Made by a program: the position numbers and the translations under genes. A stretch of 64,000 nt of DNA from an uncultured Chloroflexia bacterium (lineage in GTDB: Bacteria; Chloroflexota; Chloroflexia; Thermomicrobiales; CFX8). Under the pieces are notes generated by a model. It did no database searches. It saw only the letters and a list, made by a program, of their open reading frames with translations, and had not been told where the DNA came from. Position 1 is the stretch's first letter; every line of letters starts with the position of its first letter. Shown here piece by piece: positions 11,082 through 24,876 of the stretch. The stretch is taken from positions 995,736-1,059,735 of the forward strand of contig CAVSNU010000003.1 in the NCBI GenBank assembly GCA_963729445.1, written 5' to 3'.

Positions 11082-11858
11082 CAGGCGAGCATGCCGATCG
11101 TTGTCTCCACGACCAGCGCCGCGCGCAACCCTAACTCTCCGTGTATGTCGTGCAGCGCACCCCAATCGTTGCGCAGGTCGGTGATGCGGTGCAGCTCATT
11201 GTTGGAAATATCCTTCACCGCAAGGAAGGGCACGCCGAAAATCGCCGCCACCTGCCCAACCGCCGCGGCTTCCATCTCCTCGCAGAGCGAGCCATGCAGC
11301 TGGTGCAGGGTCTTGATGCGCGCGCCATGCTGGGTCCAGACGTCGGCCGATCCAACCGCGCCCACATGGACGATCGGCTCGTGGTTGATGCCTGGCCAGG
11401 CAGGCAACGGCGTCCTGCGGGCCGCCATCGACGCCAGCTCGAACAGCTCCGGATCAGGCATGATCGCCTCGGTGAGCATCGTTTCGCCGTTGACGTCGTA
11501 GCGAAAGCCGGTGTAGCGCTCTTGCCCATCTTCCTGCACGATGACCGCCGAGTGATGCACGATCCGGTTCGCCAGCACCACATCACCGCAGTCGATATCG
11601 TCGCGATGCGCTCCGGAGCAACCGTAGTTGATGATCGCCTGGGGACGACGCCCGATACACAGGGCGCTCGTCGTCGCGGCGGCGTTGATCAGGCCGATGC
11701 CGGACACGACCACCTCGACGGCCACCCCACCGATGGTACCGGTCGTGCGTCTCCAGACATTGAGCGGATCCTCTTCAGGATCTCTCCAGCCGTTCGCGCA
11801 GATGCACCGCTTCCGAGTCCATCGCACACACGACGGCCACCGTTCGCCGTTCTCTCAC
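11081..11858 (-). CDS. mtnN: 5'-methylthioadenosine/SAH nucleosidase family, frameshift near 11790
   Basis: N-terminal VAVVCAMDSEA in one frame, then SGIGLINAA, INYGCSG, CEEMEAAAVGQ, VKDISN. Confidence 0.8.
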
Positions 11859-12241
11859 CGAAGCCCCAACCCCACACTCACCATCACGATCGCCAAGAGT
11901 GCACAGCATACGATAACGAACATGTAATCGCGCTGTCGCAGGAAGATAATCATGGAAACCACCACACAGAATGACGGCGTAAAGAGCAGCACCAGAATAC
12001 CGAGATCAATGATGCCCTGCGGCTCAAGCGCCAGCGCGGCCGGCACCACATCGACTAGAGGGGCGACCTCGTCACCGATCGGTTCATCACGCATGAGTGC
12101 CAGTGCGCTCCCGGCCGCAATCAGAGCCATACTGCTCCAGAACCCGACCGTCAGCGTGCGCACGATCCAGCGATAGAGCGCCCGTCGCTGGCGCTCATAG
12201 ATGCGCTCTTGCACCTGTTGAGGCCGCTGCCGGCATGACAT
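11855..12241 (-). CDS. DUF1634-type membrane protein (TauE partner)
   Basis: 128 aa, three TMs, GIIDLGILVLLFTP; adjacent to TauE gene. Confidence 0.75.
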   Translation of the reverse strand: MSCRQRPQQVQERIYERQRRALYRWIVRTLTVGFWSSMALIAAGSALALMRDEPIGDEVAPLVDVVPAALALEPQGIIDLGILVLLFTPSFCVVVSMIIFLRQRDYMFVIVCCALLAIVMVSVGLGLR

Positions 12242-13077
12242 CAGAGCACCCCGAGCGCGTCGAGGTACATCGACAGGGAAAGCACTAGCAGGACAACCAC
12301 GAACAGAACGATGAGCAGATGCTGAGGCAACCTGGAGGCCAGGCGCACACCGATGCGTGCGCCAGCAATGATGCCCACCATCGAGATGATCGTGATCAGT
12401 GGAGCGACATGGCCACGGCTGTAATAGATGAGCGCCGACGCCGACGCCGTCATGCCAACCATGAATGAGCTCGTGGCAGCGGCTGCCTTGACCGGCACAC
12501 GCATCGTCAGGTTCATCACCGGTACGAGGACCGGCCCGCCCCCAATTCCAAAGAGTCCCGACGCGACACCGCCGAGCGAGGCGAGTGGAAAGGCATACCT
12601 CACTCTCCTCGGCACATAGGTCGTCACATCACCGGCGGGACCATCCACGTAGCGGCCACCGATTCGCAACGGATCACGGACCCGCAACCGTCCGGGCGGG
12701 ATCGCGCCCGGATTCCGCCGGCGGACCATAATGTAGGCAATCGCGATGAGCAGCGTTGCGAAGACGATTTTGAGCGCCGCCAATGGCATGGAGGTCGCCA
12801 GCACACCTCCGACCACTGCGCCGGTTGCGGTCGGCACCAGCAGCACGTAGGCGAGCCGCAAGTTGGTATAGCGCGACTGGAGGTAGACGCGCGAGCCGGA
12901 GATTGAGTTCGCGACAACCGAGATGGCACTGGCGGCAATCGCGGCGCGTAGAGGAACGTCAAACACCAGCGAGAGGATGGGCACGAGAAAGATACCGCCA
13001 CCAAGACCAAGCATCGTTCCGAGAGTTCCCGCCCCGGCGGCAACCATGATCAGGGCAATAACTTCGGCTACTCCCAC
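12241..13077 (-). CDS. TauE/SafE family membrane protein
   Basis: GTMLGLGGGIFLVP and SGLFGIGGGPVLVP internal repeats, AATSSFM; GTG at 13077 after ggaaggagg RBS. Confidence 0.9.
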   Translation of the reverse strand: MGVAEVIALIMVAAGAGTLGTMLGLGGGIFLVPILSLVFDVPLRAAIAASAISVVANSISGSRVYLQSRYTNLRLAYVLLVPTATGAVVGGVLATSMPLAALKIVFATLLIAIAYIMVRRRNPGAIPPGRLRVRDPLRIGGRYVDGPAGDVTTYVPRRVRYAFPLASLGGVASGLFGIGGGPVLVPVMNLTMRVPVKAAAATSSFMVGMTASASALIYYSRGHVAPLITIISMVGIIAGARIGVRLASRLPQHLLIVLFVVVLLVLSLSMYLDALGVL

Positions 13078-13170
13078 GTGCCTCCTTCCACCCTGCAACC
13101 ATACTCCCAGACGTACCCATTTTGCAGGGTCAATTCTTGGCACCACTTACGGCCCGGGACGGAATCCAGA

Positions 13171-13762: not shown

Positions 13763-14010
13763 TGATGAACAGTGCACATCAGCCGTTGCGCCGTAGGGTT
13801 AGGGATCCTTCGTTCCGCAGAGCCCGCCCCGTGGGCAGATGAAGGGATGACCGTCAAAGCGGTACGCGCTGGCCGATGACTCCTTGGGTTGACGCGAGTG
13901 GATCGTAGTCCATACAACGCCAAACCGGACGGTGGGGGCGGAAGCGTCGTTCTCCCACCTTGACGTAGCCCGAACCGGATGCCACACTGCAGCCATAACT
14001 GAATCTGAGA

Positions 14011-14134
14011 ACGACGGTGGGTGCCCTCTTGGAATGTATCGAAGGGTTCACCCAGGGGAAACCGGTGAGAATCCGGTGCTGTGCCGCAACTGTAACGCGC
14101 GAGAGCGCGAAGCCAGGTCGCCTGCCACCGTCGT
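14011..14134 (+). ncRNA. Cobalamin riboswitch
   Basis: aggggaaaccggtgagaatccggtgctgtgccgcaactgtaa and agccagg..cctgcc conserved blocks; outer stem acgacggtgg/ccaccgtcgt. Confidence 0.93.
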
Positions 14135-14193
14135 CCCCGGGTCACTTCGAGACAGGGTGACAGGGCAGGATCGTCTCCGATCCCTCCCCGAAC

Positions 14194-14217
14194 ACCCGCT
14201 CGAACGCGGGTTTTTTT
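14194..14217 (+). terminator. Riboswitch-associated intrinsic terminator
   Basis: acccgc-tcgaac-gcgggt followed by a T run. Confidence 0.8.
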
Positions 14218-14262
14218 GTGCCGGTCGGAACCAGCCGGCTCTTCCGGGAGGATCTTTACAGG

Positions 14263-15753
14263 ATGACTGCACCAGGACTGGTCAGACCGTTCAGGCTGCT
14301 GACCCTCGTCGTTTTACTGGCCGCGTTCGCGCTGACCGCAATCGCGCCGGCGGGAGCGGTCGAGACCGACTCCCCTGAGGTAACCCAGGCATTCGATTGG
14401 CTCAAAACTCAGCAACTTGACGACGGCGCCTTCTCTGGGTTCGGCGGCGAGAGCGACCCCGGCACAACGGCCGACGTTGTTTTTGCCTATGCTGCTGCCG
14501 ACATTGACCCAGAGACCATCACTTCCGCAACGGGCGAGAGCCCAGTTGACTATCTGATCGCCAACGCCGGGGAGCTCGATGAGAACCTGGGACTGGCCGG
14601 CAAGGTGACGATGGCGCTGGATGCGTCAGGCGTGGACCCGCGTGACGCGGGAGGCACAGACCTGGTCGCCGTTCTGGAGAACGCCGTCGGCGACGGCGGT
14701 GCTTTCTTTGGCACCGACACGTCCAGCCGCGCCTATGTCGTGCTGGGACTCGCGGCCGCTGATGTCGAGGTCGAGCAAAACGCAGTCGATGTCCTGGTCA
14801 ACGGGCAGATCGAAGACGGCTCGTGGTCATACACCGGAGACACGACGCCGGGCATGGGTGACTCCAACACCACCGCGCTCGTCATCCAGGCGCTAGCGGC
14901 GGTTGACGCCGGTGACGGCGCGATCGCGGAGGGTATCGACTACCTGCGCTCGCTTCAGGACGAGCGCGGCGCGATCGCCTACGACGGCAGTACCGCACCC
15001 GAGCTGGTCGGCGACGCGAATTCAACCGCCGTGGCGATCCAGGCGATGGTCGCCGCCGGCGAAGACCCAACCGAGATGGTCGAAGCGCTCGCCACCTTCC
15101 AGAACGAGAGCGGCGCCTTCTTCTGGCAACCGGAAGTCGCGGACGACTCGCTCCTGGCAACCGTTCAGGCCGTCCCGGCGCTCCTGCTCAAACCGTTGCC
15201 TCTGCAGACGGACGCGAACTCATCTGGTGAAAACACCGCCGGTCTGGTCGTGCGTCACGGTAACGGCACGCTTCTCTACACCCATGTGACGTTCGATGAG
15301 GAGACGATCAGCGGCGAGGACCTGCTCACCCGCTCCGGGCTCGACGTCGCCATGGCCCCCTTCGGCGGGCTCGGCGGCGCGGTCTGCTCGATCGACGGCG
15401 AAGGCTGCTCAAGCGACAACTGCTTCTGTCACTCCTACTCCAGCCCATCCTTCTACTGGCACTACTATGTCCTCGAGAATGGAGAATGGGTTGAGCACCC
15501 ATCCGGACCATCGTCACGCCAGCTCTCAGACGGCGCGGTCGACGGCTGGTCATGGACCGCCGGCGAGCCCGAGTTACCCACGACCAGCATCGAGCAGGTC
15601 GTCAGCGCCAGCGGCACGACGGGTCAGGCCATCAACGACGCGACCGGGGACGACGGAAATGCGTCAACCTATCTCGTGTTCGCGGGGATGGCCACGCTCA
15701 TCCTCATCGTCGGTGGCTTCGCACTCGCGCGGCAGAGGCCGAGAAGGCCGTGA
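14263..15753 (+). CDS. Secreted, C-terminally anchored protein: prenyltransferase/squalene-oxidase-repeat alpha barrel plus DUF4430-like beta domain; putative cobalamin-binding protein
   Basis: Signal peptide; repeats WLKTQQLDDGAF, GQIEDGSW, YLRSLQDERG, FQNESGAF; GAVCSIDG..YWHYY..G..LSDG..W domain; terminal TM plus RQRPRRP. Confidence 0.8.
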   Translation: MTAPGLVRPFRLLTLVVLLAAFALTAIAPAGAVETDSPEVTQAFDWLKTQQLDDGAFSGFGGESDPGTTADVVFAYAAADIDPETITSATGESPVDYLIANAGELDENLGLAGKVTMALDASGVDPRDAGGTDLVAVLENAVGDGGAFFGTDTSSRAYVVLGLAAADVEVEQNAVDVLVNGQIEDGSWSYTGDTTPGMGDSNTTALVIQALAAVDAGDGAIAEGIDYLRSLQDERGAIAYDGSTAPELVGDANSTAVAIQAMVAAGEDPTEMVEALATFQNESGAFFWQPEVADDSLLATVQAVPALLLKPLPLQTDANSSGENTAGLVVRHGNGTLLYTHVTFDEETISGEDLLTRSGLDVAMAPFGGLGGAVCSIDGEGCSSDNCFCHSYSSPSFYWHYYVLENGEWVEHPSGPSSRQLSDGAVDGWSWTAGEPELPTTSIEQVVSASGTTGQAINDATGDDGNASTYLVFAGMATLILIVGGFALARQRPRRP

Positions 15754-16763
15754 CCGGCAAAGTCAACGCCGTCGCCTGGACGCTCTGGTTTGCGGCCGTC
15801 GTCGTTGTGCCGCTGACCAGCCGCAACCCGCTCTATCTGGCGCTTGACCTGCTGGTTGTCCTGGCCGTCTTCTTCTCATTACCCCAACGGAACGGCCAGA
15901 CGAGCGCCTGGCGCCTCTTTGCCTATATCGGCACCGCAGTCGCGACGCTCTCGATCGGTTTCAATGTGTTGACGGTGCATGTCGGTGACCGGGTCTTCGC
16001 CCGGCTACCTGCCGGACTGCCGATCATCGGCGGCCCACTGACGATCAACGCCCTCGTCTACGGCGTGATCTCGGCAACGGCAATTGCAACCGTGCTCTTC
16101 GCCGCGGCGACCTTTAACTCGGCTGTACGGCATGCCGATCTAGTGCGGCTCCTGCCGGGGTCGCTCTCGCGCTTCGGGGTCGCGGCTGGTATCGCGCTGC
16201 TCTTCGTGCCGCAGACCATCGCGGCGGGACGTGACATCTACGATGCGCAACGCGCCCGGGGACACACGTTCCACCGTCCCGGTGACGCCCGGGCCTTTAT
16301 CATCCCGCTGCTCTCAACCGGCCTGGAACGGGCACTCTTGCTGAGCGAGGCACTGGAGACGCGCGGCTTCGGGGCGAGCGCAATCGCGCAACGCCCACCG
16401 AAGCGCTCCACAGTGCTCACCTCGGCAGCTGCCTCCGGCATCCTTCTGGCGCTCGTCGCGCTCGGAACCGGCTCCTATCCACTTGGTATCGCGTCGCTCG
16501 CCGCTGCGGCAACCCTGGCGCTCGCCGGGTCGTCGAACCGAACACAGCGCACGCGTTTGCGGGCGACAGAGTGGTCAACTGGCTCGTTGCTCGTGAGCCT
16601 GTCAGCAGGGCTCGCCTTCCTCGTGCTCCTGTTTGGCAGGGCCGTCAGCGACCTCAAGCTGACCTATGACACCTTTCCGCGCATCGAACAGCCGGAGCTC
16701 GCCGCTGCTGGCGGAGTAGCCATCCTGCTGCTCATCTTGCCCGCCCTGGTGAACCGGCCATGA
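15750..16763 (+). CDS. ecfT: ECF transporter transmembrane (T) component
   Basis: AQRARG and EALETRGF motifs; GTG overlaps the upstream TGA. Confidence 0.88.
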   Translation: MTGKVNAVAWTLWFAAVVVVPLTSRNPLYLALDLLVVLAVFFSLPQRNGQTSAWRLFAYIGTAVATLSIGFNVLTVHVGDRVFARLPAGLPIIGGPLTINALVYGVISATAIATVLFAAATFNSAVRHADLVRLLPGSLSRFGVAAGIALLFVPQTIAAGRDIYDAQRARGHTFHRPGDARAFIIPLLSTGLERALLLSEALETRGFGASAIAQRPPKRSTVLTSAAASGILLALVALGTGSYPLGIASLAAAATLALAGSSNRTQRTRLRATEWSTGSLLVSLSAGLAFLVLLFGRAVSDLKLTYDTFPRIEQPELAAAGGVAILLLILPALVNRP

Positions 16764-18355
16764 TCGCGCTCAAGCTGGACAGCCTCTCCTTCCGCTTCGC
16801 GGCGTCCGAGTACGATGTGCTGCGAGCCGTGAACTGGGACGCGCTCGCGGGCTCGGTCAACCTGGTCGTCGGCCCATCGGGAGCAGGTAAGACGACCCTC
16901 CTGCACTGCCTGAACGGCATCATCCCGCACTTCCACGGCGGGTTCTTTGGCGGCGAGGTGACCGTCCTTGGGCGCAACATCCGCCTGACCGCGCCGCGCG
17001 ATCTGGCGGCCTCGGTCGGCACCGTCTTTCAGGACCCTGAGTCGCAGTTCGTGACTGACTCGGTGGAGGACGAGATCGTCTTTACGATGGAAAACCTGGC
17101 CTACGACCGGCAGACGATGCGCCTGCGGCTGGAAGAGACACTCGACCTGCTCGGCATCCAGCACCTGCGCCATCGTGCGATCTCGGAGCTGAGCGGCGGG
17201 GAGCGCCAACGGGTCGCTCTGGCCGCCTCGCTGGCGTCGCGTCCGGAGCTGATGATCCTTGACGAACCGACCTCCCAGCTCGATCCGCTGGCGGCCCACG
17301 ACATTCTGACGGCCGTCGAACGCTTGAACCTCGATTTCGGCATGACGGTCGTTATCGCCGAGCATCGCCTGGACCGCGTGCTGCCCTTTGCCGAGAACAT
17401 CATTCACGTCCATGACACGGAGCTCATCTCCGGCCCGACGCAGGAAATGCTGCCGGAGCTCGACGACGTTCCACCGCTCGTGCAGTTCGGTCGACACAAG
17501 GGCTGGTATCCCGTTCCGCTGACGATCCGCCACGCCCGCCGGCGTCTCCTCAGCCTGCCCCTGGAACCCCGATCCGCACAGCAGGTTCAGGCCCCCGGTG
17601 AGCGCATCGTCAGGCTGGAGAAGGTCGGTTTCAGTTACGGTAGCAGGCCTGCGCTGAAGGACATCAACATCGATGCTCACGCCGGTGAGGTCATCGCCCT
17701 GGTCGGACGGAATGGCTCCGGCAAGACAACGCTGCTCAAGCACGTGATGGGGCTCCTGCGACCCTCTGAGGGCAAGGTCCTGCTCCATGGAGAGGATACT
17801 GCCAGGCAATCCGTCCAGCAGATCGCCCGCAGCGTCGGTTATGTCCCACAGTTCCCGACTGCCATCCTGCACCAGGAGACCCTGCGCGACGAGCTGGCGT
17901 TCACCGGCAGGGCCCAGGGGAAGCCGATCGATCCCGAGACCACCGCCCGACAACTCGGCATCGCGGATCTTCTGGATCGGCACCCGCTCGACCTCAGCGG
18001 GGGCCAACGCCAGCGGGCAGCCCTTGCCGCCATCTGTGCGGCTGAGCCGGAGGTCTTGCTGCTCGACGAGCCAACCCGCGGTCTGCCGGGGCGCGACAAG
18101 ACAGTCCTGGCAACCTTCATTCGTCGTTATGCTGCCGAAGGCCGGTTGGTCATCGTGGCCACCCACGATGTCGAGTTCCTGGTTCTGTGCTCAACCCGGG
18201 TGCTCACCCTTGCGGGCGGTGAGCTGATTGCCGATGGACGGCCCGCGGACGTACTGGCCGGCTCACTCTCGTTCGGGACCCAGATGAACCGGCTGCTCGG
18301 TGGCGACATCCTCACGCTCGCCGATGCCGGCGTGCCGCCTTCAGACATCGGGTAA
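16760..18355 (+). CDS. ECF transporter fused double ATPase (EcfA-EcfA')
   Basis: Two Walker A motifs (GPSGAGKT, GRNGSGKT), FQDPESQF, LSGGERQR/LSGGQRQR, two DEPT. Confidence 0.93.
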   Translation: MIALKLDSLSFRFAASEYDVLRAVNWDALAGSVNLVVGPSGAGKTTLLHCLNGIIPHFHGGFFGGEVTVLGRNIRLTAPRDLAASVGTVFQDPESQFVTDSVEDEIVFTMENLAYDRQTMRLRLEETLDLLGIQHLRHRAISELSGGERQRVALAASLASRPELMILDEPTSQLDPLAAHDILTAVERLNLDFGMTVVIAEHRLDRVLPFAENIIHVHDTELISGPTQEMLPELDDVPPLVQFGRHKGWYPVPLTIRHARRRLLSLPLEPRSAQQVQAPGERIVRLEKVGFSYGSRPALKDINIDAHAGEVIALVGRNGSGKTTLLKHVMGLLRPSEGKVLLHGEDTARQSVQQIARSVGYVPQFPTAILHQETLRDELAFTGRAQGKPIDPETTARQLGIADLLDRHPLDLSGGQRQRAALAAICAAEPEVLLLDEPTRGLPGRDKTVLATFIRRYAAEGRLVIVATHDVEFLVLCSTRVLTLAGGELIADGRPADVLAGSLSFGTQMNRLLGGDILTLADAGVPPSDIG

Positions 18356-18395: not shown

Positions 18396-19172
18396 CTACA
18401 TGGTCATGCCGTCCATCCCGCCCGAGGTGTCCGCGTGGAAGCCCGGAGCGAGCTCAGGAAAAAACACGACCGCCACAGCCAGCGCGAGCGAGATCACACC
18501 CGCGGCCTTGGCCAGCTTCTCCCCGTGTGACCACTGCTTTTCGAGCGCAACAACCGACGCCAGGCCAACCATTGCAACGAGGTTCATCATTCCGAACGCG
18601 ACCATGAGCAGCATCAGTGACCAGCAGCAGCCCAGGCAGAACATGCCATGATGCGATCCCGCCCGCAGGTTTCGGAACACCCCACGATAGCTACCGTAGT
18701 GCAGAAAGTGGCCGAGCGGCGTGCGGCAATGGTGCAAGCAACGATCTTTGAGCGGCGTCAGCTGGTACAGACCACAGGTTGCGAAGATTGCGACCGCCGC
18801 CCCGGTCGCCCAACCGGGCTGGTCGGCAGCGACGCGGTCTGCTATCCACGCCAGCCCGAAGGCTGGAACGCCCGAGAGCGACCAGACGAGCACATAGCCT
18901 GCAACAAACAGCGCGAGCTGACGGTAGCGTTGGATCTGGAGCGTCCGCATGTAGATACCGACGAGCGGCGACGCGGACGGCAGCATCATCGCGGCCATCA
19001 TAAAGGTCCACATCGCGACGAACGGCACCATCCCCATGCCCATCGTGCCGGGCATGCCTCCCATCTCCCGTGCCCAGGTAATCGTGACGATCCAGGCCCC
19101 AGCGGCGAGCAGAAGAAGCGGGACCACGATACGAGCGCGTCCCTGGCTGGACTGCAAGGAAGAGATCTGCAT
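18396..19172 (-). CDS. DUF2182 family metal-binding integral membrane protein
   Basis: WTFMMAAMMLPS, YQLTPLKDRCLHHCR, CLGCCWSLM, LEK. Confidence 0.9.
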   Translation of the reverse strand: MQISSLQSSQGRARIVVPLLLLAAGAWIVTITWAREMGGMPGTMGMGMVPFVAMWTFMMAAMMLPSASPLVGIYMRTLQIQRYRQLALFVAGYVLVWSLSGVPAFGLAWIADRVAADQPGWATGAAVAIFATCGLYQLTPLKDRCLHHCRTPLGHFLHYGSYRGVFRNLRAGSHHGMFCLGCCWSLMLLMVAFGMMNLVAMVGLASVVALEKQWSHGEKLAKAAGVISLALAVAVVFFPELAPGFHADTSGGMDGMTM

Positions 19173-19213
19173 CCAACGCCTCCATGCTCGATCTGCGACG
19201 CAGCGTCTTGCTG

Positions 19214-19846
19214 CTATGCGTTCGCCCAGGTAAACGGTGCGTAGTGGCCGTTCTTGCCGGAATTGTCCCAGCGCATGCCATAATCTTCCCAGAGGCTCCC
19301 AGCATCGCCATGAGCCATCGCGATCTTCTCCGGGAACAACGGGTGCGCGTTCGTCAACCACACTTCACTATCTGGAGTGACGCCCGGATTCGCGCTGACT
19401 GCCATCCGCATGACCCCGGGAACCTCGACCGAGCGGCGGCGGTCTTCTTGGGAGTAAGTGATCGGGACGACCTTGACTCCAAGCACCTCAGAAACCAGCG
19501 GTGCCAGCGCGCCCATGGGCCCACCCGCACTCCCGGCAAAGATACTGGTGAGCGCATCACGCTGGCGGTCGTCGGCGCGCTCGTCGAGGTAGAGCGCCAC
19601 CTGCGCGTTCCCCTCCGCCATCACGCCCGGTGTGCGCAACACGACCACCGTATTCAGCCCATCCAACGTCACGTCGCCATAGCTTCCCCGGTCAATATGA
19701 AACGCGAACGGAACCTCACACGCGCCTTCGGTGGGACGGTTGGTTAAGGGGCCTTGGGGAGAATGCAGGCAGGGACAGGGAACAGCGCAGTTACAGTTCT
19801 CGAAATAATCCCCGTTGATCTGCCACTGTGTCTGGGTTGCTGTCAT
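19214..19846 (-). CDS. DUF1326 family protein
   Basis: WQINGDYFENCNCAVPCPC, HIDRGSYGDVTLDGL, WDNSGKNG. Confidence 0.9.
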   Translation of the reverse strand: MTATQTQWQINGDYFENCNCAVPCPCLHSPQGPLTNRPTEGACEVPFAFHIDRGSYGDVTLDGLNTVVVLRTPGVMAEGNAQVALYLDERADDRQRDALTSIFAGSAGGPMGALAPLVSEVLGVKVVPITYSQEDRRRSVEVPGVMRMAVSANPGVTPDSEVWLTNAHPLFPEKIAMAHGDAGSLWEDYGMRWDNSGKNGHYAPFTWANA

Positions 19847-20280
19847 GGATCCTCTCCCTTTCCTGCAGGACTGACACTGGAGCGGATGTGCTTGAAATCG
19901 ATCCGTCTGCCGCGCACCTCGATCCGCGATGGGAGGAACGCGCCAGCACCCGCCATCATGCACCGATGCGGCGGCACCAGCGAGGCGCTGGAGCCCGGAC
20001 TTTGACTCGCCGGATGGAGACGTATGTACAGGACTACTCAGGCTTATGTCCACTCTATGGAGTGAACAACGTTTTGTCAATACGGCACAACATCGCACAT
20101 GACCTGCCCGAAGGCACGCGAAAACATTGGGGCCTTGGTACAATTGAAGGTCGTGCCTTTCCGCAGGGAACTACGGCGCGTTTTACTACCTTGTGGCAAT
20201 CATTCATAATTAAAAGACCTTGCAATCGATAAACCCGTTTCGGGAACACTCCCTGCGGCAGAAATAGAGGACAGAACCGT

Positions 20281-24254: not shown

Positions 24255-24330
24255 TTGAATAAGGCGGTGATGAAGCACGGGTTGTATTTGGGCACCTAAC
24301 CCGTGTGGAGCCAGTGGTGCAACCGGCCGA
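24255..24330 (+). ncRNA. c-di-GMP-II riboswitch
   Basis: gatgaa kink-turn strand, stem acgggtt/aacccgt with gggcac loop, then gagccagtggtgcaaccggcc (gcac/gtgc pseudoknot); matches the class II consensus as I recall it. Confidence 0.85.
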
Positions 24331-24350
24331 CTCGTCGAGCCGGTTTTTTT
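24321..24350 (+). terminator. Riboswitch-overlapping intrinsic terminator
   Basis: aaccggc-cgactcgtcga-gccggtt plus T run; the 5' arm is the aptamer 3' end. Confidence 0.85.
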
Positions 24351-24479: not shown

Positions 24480-24540
24480 GTGAGCATGTCTAGGACAGAT
24501 TCAGGTGCGGCCTGGCCGTGCCCAACCGGGGGTAAGCTGC

Positions 24541-24876
24541 ATGAAGCTCATTTTCGCGATCGTCCAGGACGAAGATGTCGAAAACCTATCGGATGCTCTG
24601 GTTGCCGAGGGATTCCGCTCAACCCGCATCGGCAGCACCGGCTCTTTCCTGCGGATGGGCAACAGCAGTCTCATGATCGGCGTGGAGGATCATCAGGTTC
24701 CTCACGTCACATCCATCGTGCGACGCACTTGCCGGCGCAGAAAGCAGATGGCAGTCCCGTATTCACCTGCCCTCGAACCGGGCTTGCTCTACATGCCGGA
24801 GAACTTCGAAGTCGAAGTTGGCGGCGCGGTCCTCATGGTCCACAACGTTGAGCGTTTCGAACGCGTTCTCGTCTAG
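24541..24876 (+). CDS. darA: Cyclic-di-AMP receptor, PII-like (DarA/PstA, DUF970)
   Basis: MKLIFAIVQDED, STRIGSTGSFLRMGN, CRRR, VEVGGA. Confidence 0.9.
   Translation: MKLIFAIVQDEDVENLSDALVAEGFRSTRIGSTGSFLRMGNSSLMIGVEDHQVPHVTSIVRRTCRRRKQMAVPYSPALEPGLLYMPENFEVEVGGAVLMVHNVERFERVLV

Follow-up and report, generated by a model that had tools for sequence, protein, structure and literature searches.

What is a protein built like the cobalamin (B12) carriers of animals doing beside the motor genes of an importer, in a bacterium that apparently cannot make B12? The question is raised by a stretch of 64,000 nucleotides from an uncultured Chloroflexia bacterium (contig CAVSNU010000003.1, positions 995,736 to 1,059,735; here called the window), in which three overlapping genes of the forward strand, forming an operon that spans positions 14263-18355, lie downstream of a cobalamin riboswitch and a terminator. 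The original prediction, made from the letters alone, had read these genes as capturing corrinoids at the cell surface for an energy-coupling factor (ECF) motor. The riboswitch, the order and overlaps of the genes, the predicted folds, the linkage to the riboswitch in relatives, a distant orthologue of an S component and the B12 gene content of the genome, each of them observed directly, favour that reading, and we consider it likely that the operon provides riboswitch-repressed corrinoid capture feeding an ECF importer. Corrinoid binding by the product of gene 1, and its hand-over to the S component, would follow by analogy with the animal carriers. The features referred to below, in window coordinates, are:

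14001-14143, + strand: cobalamin riboswitch aptamer (Rfam RF00174, 51.4 bits against a gathering score of 31.5, E 6.9e-10)
14146-14218, + strand: expression platform, with a terminator hairpin at 14194-14211 followed by a run of seven T, and an upstream hairpin at about 14146-14205
14263-15753, + strand: gene 1 (P0002), 496 residues, predicted membrane-anchored transcobalamin-like corrinoid binder, a fused alpha and beta gene
14263-14358, + strand: signal peptide of gene 1, residues 1 to about 32, with a hydrophobic segment at residues 12-30 and a putative cleavage site at its end (APAGA/VE)
14359-15207, + strand: alpha/alpha toroid of gene 1, residues about 33-315, with three Q-x3-G-x-[WF] repeats and no DxDD
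15232-15585, + strand: predicted transcobalamin-like beta-grasp (SLBB) domain of gene 1, SCO2322 type, residues about 324-441, with the loop of Cys375, Cys382, Cys387 and Cys389 at 15385-15429
15661-15732, + strand: C-terminal transmembrane anchor of gene 1, residues 467-490, followed by an Arg-rich tail
15750-16763, + strand: gene 2 (P0001), 337 residues, probable divergent EcfT with a C-terminal extension of about 120 residues containing three hydrophobic segments
16760-18355, + strand: gene 3 (P0003), 531 residues, predicted fused EcfA-EcfA' ATPase

The riboswitch and the coupled genes

The aptamer match is full-length (model positions 1-189) and above the gathering score, its 5' end falling 10 nt before the start first proposed, and a genome-wide search (4.06 Mb in 5 contigs, 90% complete) showed that the single Cobalamin riboswitch of this genome is the one on this operon. 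A terminator scan placed the terminator stem (ACCCGC/GCGGGT), followed by its seven T, 50 nt 3' of the aptamer, so that both the cobalamin riboswitch and the terminator claimed for the locus are confirmed. In the minimum-free-energy RNA fold the upstream hairpin takes up the 5' arm of the terminator (z -1.69), an arrangement compatible with a terminator/antiterminator switch, although the fold alone does not establish the mechanism; the leader would presumably behave as an OFF switch.

The open reading frame (ORF) of gene 1 opens at 14218, and its likely start is the ATG at 14263, preceded by GGGAGGA at about 14247. The GTG start of gene 2 at 15750 lies inside the stop codon of gene 1 (a GTGA overlap), and the ATG start of gene 3 at 16760 overlaps the stop codon of gene 2 (ATGA), bearing out the proposal that the binder, ecfT and ecfAA' are translationally coupled.

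Gene 1: an alpha/alpha toroid followed by a predicted transcobalamin-type domain

The product of gene 1 had been described as a secreted protein anchored at its C-terminus. This agrees with the hydrophobic segments of P0002, of which there are only two (residues 12-30 and 471-489, the latter followed by RQRPRRP), and with the helices at residues 9-25 and 467-490 of an AlphaFold2 model. The C-terminus contains no LPXTG motif, and its match to GPS-CTERM (E 0.028) falls under the cut-off of that model. The ectodomain is strongly acidic, with 68 Asp and Glu residues against 10 Lys and Arg across 418 residues. Every sequence feature quoted for gene 1 in the original prediction was found, including the motifs LLATVQAVPALLL and GGAVCSIDGEGCSSDNCFCHSYSSPSFYWHYYVLENGEW...DGAVDGWSW.

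Among sequence models, P0002 matched Pfam SQHop_cyclase_C (1.8e-6), with Prenyltrans below its cut-off, and NCBIfam SCO2321_fam (4.2e-27, 95 bits against a cut-off of 300); residues 398-435 gave a short match to NCBIfam SCO2322_fam (2.2e-4, 21.6 bits against a cut-off of 85). The protein thus appears related to SCO2321_fam and SCO2322_fam, but is a member of neither by the NCBI thresholds. It gave no match to Pfam PF01122 (Cobalamin_bind) at E ≤ 10, and a relative consisting of the alpha part only (P0024) passes that model with 27.1 bits against 25.

The AlphaFold2 model of P0002, built on a 45-sequence alignment, has a predicted local distance difference test score (pLDDT) of about 96 at residues 33-315; the C-terminal domain is weaker, and the Cys-rich stretch at residues 366-397 falls below 50. 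When this model was compared with the PDB by Foldseek, the nine top matches, at E 3.4e-8 to 6.9e-7, were transcobalamin and haptocorrin; intrinsic factor followed at 3-5e-5. The alignments to these transcobalamin-type chains run over 450-490 columns, and so include both domains, at a root-mean-square deviation (rmsd) of 23-24 Å; a whole-chain value of this size means that the placement of the domains in the ligand-free model differs from that in the ligand-bound crystal structures. Matches to terpene cyclases are confined to the toroid of P0002, and squalene-hopene and drimenyl-diphosphate cyclases are the top sequence and Z matches of the toroid, the fold of which cannot by itself tell B12 carriers from terpene cyclases. 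The predicted order of the domains is that of the transcobalamin type, with an N-terminal alpha6/alpha6 toroid followed by a beta-grasp domain of the transcobalamin clade in one chain, and the pairing foreseen from the letters is therefore reproduced in the model and in its Foldseek matches to transcobalamin and intrinsic factor.

The beta domain was also refolded with a 67-protein alignment, which gave a pLDDT of 94.7. The 18 best Foldseek rows listed for this domain (ranks 1-19) contain nothing but transcobalamin, haptocorrin, intrinsic factor and 3u7z, the last a structural-genomics protein from Ruminococcus gnavus that was deposited as a 'putative metal binding protein' and that is the best structural match. 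A second structural comparison, independent of Foldseek, was made against 48,161 representative chains; the gap that it gave between transcobalamin-type and other folds is, for a predicted structure, the strongest single result of this analysis, and the modelled domain appears to belong specifically to the transcobalamin clade of the beta-grasp fold.

The same relationship is invisible at the sequence level. Single-sequence and profile searches of PDB sequences linked neither domain of gene 1 to transcobalamin, and the profile of the beta-domain family found no transcobalamin or 3u7z at E ≤ 10. A match of the beta domain to the DUF4430 hidden Markov model (HMM) had been expected and was not obtained: P0002 had none to Pfam PF14478 (DUF4430) at E ≤ 10, nor did any of the 67 family members at E ≤ 0.1, and the only lead towards DUF4430 was one protein-atlas cluster (score 0.83). 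NCBIfam SCO2322_fam was matched by 36 of the 67 members (best E 3.2e-11), the protein atlas places the beta domain nearest to clusters with the recent Pfam family PF28005 'SCO2322' (score 0.93), and the relative P0110 carries a precomputed PF28005.

A search of 1.84 billion representative proteins with residues 318-450 of P0002, for which at least 150 matches were listed, returned 1,921 relatives of the beta domain at E ≤ 1e-3, counted as representative clusters, and 1,172 at E ≤ 1e-10. Among the 150 matches listed, nearly all have the domain at the N-terminus, right after a signal peptide, and it begins past residue 300 in three (P0006, P0007 and P0148). Across the 67-protein alignment Cys58, Cys65 and Cys70 are invariant and Cys72 is nearly so (Cys375, Cys382, Cys387 and Cys389 of P0002, respectively), forming a loop of the pattern Cx6Cx4CxC; Trp82 is also invariant, and further Trp and Gly positions, the tryptophans of GWSW included, are nearly invariant.

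The four-cysteine loop is a candidate for the residues left unaligned by the 96-residue chain of 3u7z. In BtuM, a Cys residue serves as the cobalt ligand. The loop of P0002 sits between the clade-specific hairpin and strand 3, which are described as B12-contacting elements in the accessible text of Burroughs et al. (PMC1796856). Conceivably, it supplies a cobalt thiolate ligand, or a redox disulfide switch that frees the corrinoid to the S component, in a lineage that regulates its uptake by switching the binder and its private ECF motor while the S component is expressed independently; we regard this combined proposal as unlikely.

Genes 2 and 3: a divergent EcfT and a fused ATPase

Taken alone, P0001 matches no Pfam or NCBIfam model, the Pfam CbiQ model included, and its similarity by phmmer to the EcfT chain 5d3m_D of the PDB is weak (E 5.3e-4). 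A profile of seven P0001 homologues, however, found EcfT chains alone among PDB sequences (best 2.4e-15, 5d3m_D/6fnp), and the homologues in L002, L007, L008 and L009, four of the related loci discussed below, pass Pfam CbiQ; on these two grounds we assign gene 2, despite the miss, as a probable divergent EcfT of the CbiQ family. The protein carries AQRARG and ETRGFG, which we take to be the Arg-containing coupling-helix motifs of EcfT, and R170-G171 and R205-G206 are invariant among the homologues. At 337 residues, compared with 265-280 for the crystallised EcfTs, P0001 is unusually long; its extension of about 120 residues follows the second Arg motif (residues about 215-337), is kept in the homologues of L001, L002, L003, L008 and L009 and has no counterpart in the crystallised EcfTs.

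The assignment of P0003 is more straightforward. It has two ABC_tran domains (1.5e-61) and matches both the ECF_ATPase_1 and ECF_ATPase_2 models (TIGR04520 and TIGR04521) at E of about 1e-92, its scores of 307.5 and 307.9 bits lying just short of the equivalog cut-offs of 315 and 330, respectively; against the cbiO subfamily model TIGR01166 it scores 278.9 bits, over the cut-off of 211.8. These matches point to a duplicated ABC ATPase of the ECF/CbiO type, in effect an EcfA-A' pair.

Conservation of the operon and origin of the fusion

The named homologues are annotated as Thermomicrobiales, Nitrolancea or Chloroflexota. A Cobalamin riboswitch lies directly upstream in all nine loci that this protein retrieved from the genomes of other species (Chloroflexota and one Actinomycetota metagenome-assembled genome, MAG). 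The system is present in 25 of 30 relatives searched (18 of 18 within the same family), and a cobalamin-class riboswitch precedes it in 12 of the 13 loci taken from relatives, L028 having none at the gathering score. The two sets overlap, in that L016 and L020 of the second appear, from ORF lengths and BLAST figures, to duplicate L003 and L001 of the first. Because the riboswitch and gene arrangement recur in 9/9 and 12/13 loci, we do not attribute their combination to chance. The order binder, T, AA' is kept in L001, L003, L007 and L008; it recurs in L002 and L009, except that there an S gene stands in front of T.

Related operons had been expected often to have the two domains in separate genes, and so they do: among the first nine loci, the Actinomycetota MAG included, seven have separate alpha and beta genes, L006 has a beta gene only, and both domains stand in one ORF in L002 alone. 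An ORF with both domains was found in none of the 13 loci from relatives, eight of which have adjacent alpha and beta ORFs, while the remaining five have a separate beta match listed nearby; the same-genus genome G001 is also split. Apparent fused genes in G007, G009 and G025, indicated by equal open-frame values, were considered and rejected where L020 and L026 show alpha and beta ORFs divided by a stop, the rejection covering these two loci.

The fusion in gene 1 is real, since fused homologues are found in other data sets (P0004-P0007, 46-72% identical; also P0036, 34%) and a 151-nt metagenome contig from a related strain (run X1) spans the junction, covering 15153-15303 with no gaps and 11 differences. 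Since most relatives have alpha and beta as separate adjacent genes, the fusion is derived, from two neighbouring genes, and is recent. That the two are adjacent elsewhere and fused here lends Rosetta-stone support to their joint function. By comparison with L003, gene 1 is without the C-terminal Cys module of the alpha protein (about 85-100 residues) and without the signal peptide of the beta protein. Fusions in the reverse order, with the beta domain preceding the toroid, were seen in P0142, P0193, P0207 and P0264.

The Cys module of the L003 alpha protein (L003:6341-7858, residues about 400-505) has the pattern CxYFExTxHNxC...QYFERxxFExHP. It is also found in P0008 and, in two copies, in P0030, and has no precomputed Pfam match.

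In L005 a FecCD-type permease (6e-47) takes the place of the ECF module behind the alpha/beta pair, which suggests that the binder module combines with either importer type. In this locus (L005:1385-7726) and in L004 (L004:6864-11539), which come from two Chloroflexaceae MAGs, the riboswitch controls proteins of much greater size, the alpha protein having 822 residues, with two toroid matches, and the beta protein 630-636.

The S component and the B12 physiology of the host

An ECF transporter needs a membrane S component. No S gene lies between 14263 and 18355, and the operon does not have the group I organisation, in which S is encoded with the module. Three of the related loci have PF12822 S genes within the operon, in the orders fused binder, S, T, AA' (L002), alpha, beta, T, AA', S (L007) and alpha, beta, S, T, AA' (L009), and this genome contains one clear orthologue of them, at G000:C3:1342566-1343429. 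The orthologue, of 287 residues, is 46%, 39% and 35% identical to the S genes of L002, L007 and L009, respectively (E 2.5e-57 to 5e-45), and scores 43.2 bits against PF12822, over the cut-off. It stands alone, about 333 kb from the operon, with no riboswitch found at its locus, and is strongly conserved among Thermomicrobiales and Chloroflexota; with no match among PDB sequences at E ≤ 10, it cannot be called a CbrT. Because canonical CbiQ genes, two in number, are also present in the genome, and another contig carries a second S-like gene, we infer the pairing of the distant S component with the T/AA' module of the operon from orthology only.

The genome has seven ORFs with a B12-binding domain, and encodes methylmalonyl-CoA mutase, a PduO-type adenosyltransferase and FecCD-type permeases. 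In this 90%-complete genome CbiC, CobS and CbiB/CobD gave 0 matches each, and NrdJ was not found. This gene content, read from an incomplete genome, suggests a host that uses cobamides, relies on their uptake and is apparently unable to make B12. The match to methylmalonyl-CoA mutase, at G000:C3:959104-960629, about 35 kb upstream of the window, is made up of profile pieces 1-66 and 64-512 in different frames, and could be a frameshift or two ORFs.

In this soil-type, Thermomicrobiales-like member of the Chloroflexota, the operon would then work as follows. At low intracellular cobalamin, the riboswitch would let transcription read through the terminator, and gene 1 would give rise to a highly acidic ectodomain, held at the cytoplasmic membrane by a single C-terminal helix. 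The toroid and the beta-grasp domain might clamp a corrinoid between them in the manner of transcobalamin, intrinsic factor and haptocorrin. From there the corrinoid would be handed to the membrane S component encoded about 333 kb away, which would dock onto the EcfT of the operon and its fused EcfA-A' ATPase, the latter powering import.

Alternative explanations

The same machinery might import heme, or an incomplete corrinoid such as cobinamide or cobyric acid, rather than complete cobamides. Heme is the substrate proposed for the lsa1836-1840 operon of Lactobacillus sakei, in the available part of that study (10.1101/864751), and cobinamide is also accepted by the animal carriers and by CbrT, according to the accessible text on the latter (PMC5997447). 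However, the cobalamin riboswitch upstream in 9/9 and 12/13 loci argues against both substrates; the gene context contains no pointer to heme, and an incomplete corrinoid could not be finished in a host where CobS and CbiB were not found. We consider such a substrate improbable.

No more promising is the idea that the surface protein sequesters or stores corrinoids without feeding the ECF module, uptake proceeding via the S component alone. Among the ECF transporters characterised to date, none requires an extracytoplasmic binder, and ECF-CbrT works with CbrT alone, as described in the accessible text (PMC5997447); moreover, the FecCD-type permease adjoining the alpha/beta pair of L005 indicates that the binder is not bound to one importer type. 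Against this, the binder of gene 1 is tightly coupled in translation to ecfT and ecfAA', and the order of binder, T and AA' is kept in four other loci, or in six when the two with S before T are counted. We think storage alone quite unlikely.

Cobalt transporters of the ECF type can likewise be under B12 riboswitch control, and the operon might accordingly import cobalt or another metal ion, with the four-cysteine loop as the metal site. The deposition of 3u7z, the best structural match, as a putative metal-binding protein, and the conservation of the four cysteines, would suit this idea. But there is no partner of the CbiM/CbiN type, and the S orthologue belongs with PF12822. The architecture, with its two domains, matches corrinoid carriers, and cobalt would be useless for B12 synthesis, because the corrin pathway markers searched for were not found; the likelihood of metal import is slight.

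That the toroid is an enzyme of the terpene cyclase or prenyltransferase kind acting on an envelope lipid, with only an indirect link to B12, is scarcely credible in spite of its top matches to squalene-hopene and drimenyl-diphosphate cyclases, as a regex search of P0002 for D.DD found no DxDD, the catalytic motif that defines class II terpene cyclases, an extracytoplasmic domain would be without access to prenyl-diphosphate substrates, and the toroid is fused to a transcobalamin-type beta domain in a conserved riboswitch and ECF context.

Neighbouring features of the window

The two genes directly 3' of the operon, at 18396-20143, lie on the opposite strand and are unrelated to it: one resembles PpoB2 copper chaperones (4e-52) and overlaps the other, which matches DUF1326 (5.3e-53). 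Divergent from the operon, on the - strand at 11855-13146, lies a pair consisting of a TauE/SafE permease (1e-47) and DUF1634 (9.1e-19). L001 and L003 have a gene of similar size, with 6-7 transmembrane segments, at the same divergent position (not scanned against Pfam), and the shared position is probably just synteny. Further downstream, a c-di-GMP-II riboswitch (RF01786, 67.3 bits) occupies 24256-24337 of the + strand, and about 170 nt beyond it an ORF at 24505-24876 (+ strand) matches Pfam CdAMP_rec, the cyclic-di-AMP receptor family (5.7e-35); this arrangement would place a c-di-AMP receptor under c-di-GMP control.

Significance

The prediction that bacteria have relatives of the animal B12 carriers is nearly twenty years old, and in the literature that we found corrinoid binding by these relatives is still a prediction, the sole experimentally studied operon of this type, that of L. 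sakei, having been assigned to heme. The original prediction had remarked that no biochemical characterization of the fused form was known; consistent with this, our searches of the literature outside subscription journals and supplements yielded no study in which such a bacterial protein was tested biochemically for corrinoid binding. With supplements likewise not covered, nothing relevant was found on SCO2321-2324, on SLBB with cobalamin and ECF, or on a riboswitch with a prenyltransferase and ECF. In Chloroflexota the beta domain is almost always found behind a B12 riboswitch, and because the family is also large (1,921 clusters), it is likely to be one of the major routes by which bacteria of soil and rhizosphere scavenge cobamides. 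The natural single-chain form is a convenient and tractable target for binding and structural work on the old prediction, and gene 1 is relevant to the proposal that transcobalamin originated in bacteria; the finding leaves the expectations of specialists unchanged.

Comparison with known systems

The SLBB superfamily was defined by Burroughs, Balaji, Iyer and Aravind in 2007 (PMC1796856). In the accessible text of that paper, the fusion of a transcobalamin-type beta-grasp domain with an alpha/alpha toroid is described as a common arrangement among bacteria and eukaryotes alike, in which the toroid may come before or after the beta-grasp domain. The same text reports signal peptides and anchors of the Gram-positive kind, a place in operons beside CbiO-like and CbiQ-like genes, and hosts usually without B12 synthesis, and predicts from these contexts the scavenging of B12 or its precursors. 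Gene 1 resembles the proteins so described in its signal peptide, its C-terminal anchor, the position of its toroid N-terminal to the beta-grasp domain, the neighbouring CbiQ-like and CbiO-like genes and a host apparently lacking B12 synthesis. It differs from that set, which as far as the same text goes is purely computational and centred on Gram-positive bacteria, in its host, one of the Chloroflexota, and in its SCO2322-type beta domain, which has a Cx6Cx4CxC loop and is missed by the DUF4430 HMM. The SCO2321 and SCO2322 families and PF28005 are the best curated matches to the two halves of gene 1; their names carry no function, and in these named families the parts are separate proteins.

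The animal proteins transcobalamin, intrinsic factor and haptocorrin (2bb5, 2bb6, 4zrp, 2pmv, 3kq4 and 4kki) are 10-18% identical to P0002. They are soluble, whereas P0002 appears to be anchored in the membrane and has the additional four-cysteine loop, and their clamp geometry is not reproduced in the ligand-free model.

The fold of BtuG we take to be unrelated to that of gene 1. BtuG-type surface lipoproteins of Bacteroides capture B12 in the account available (PMC6143338), and gene 1 may by analogy share with them the idea of corrinoid capture at the cell surface for a riboswitch-controlled importer; the transporter that BtuG feeds, however, is a TonB-dependent one of the outer membrane and not of the ECF type. 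The characterised ECF importer of B12 is ECF-CbrT of Lactobacillus delbrueckii, which in the accessible text has no extracytoplasmic binder and uses a shared group II module (PMC5997447). The present system would be of the same ECF type, and the T profile found its best PDB match (2.4e-15) in the EcfT of the CbrT complex (5d3m_D/6fnp), but this operon carries a predicted extracytoplasmic binder. The L. sakei operon, comprising S, fused AA', T and secreted beta-like and alpha-like transcobalamin proteins in the part of the study available (10.1101/864751), has alpha and beta separate, S within the operon and heme as its proposed substrate, whereas here alpha and beta are fused, S is unlinked and the operon follows a B12 riboswitch.

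Both the architecture and the operon type have thus been described in silico since 2007, and the locus introduces no new principle. Its peculiarities are local ones: the recent fusion of alpha and beta, the SCO2322-type beta domain with its Cys loop, the divergent and extended EcfT and the unlinked S component.

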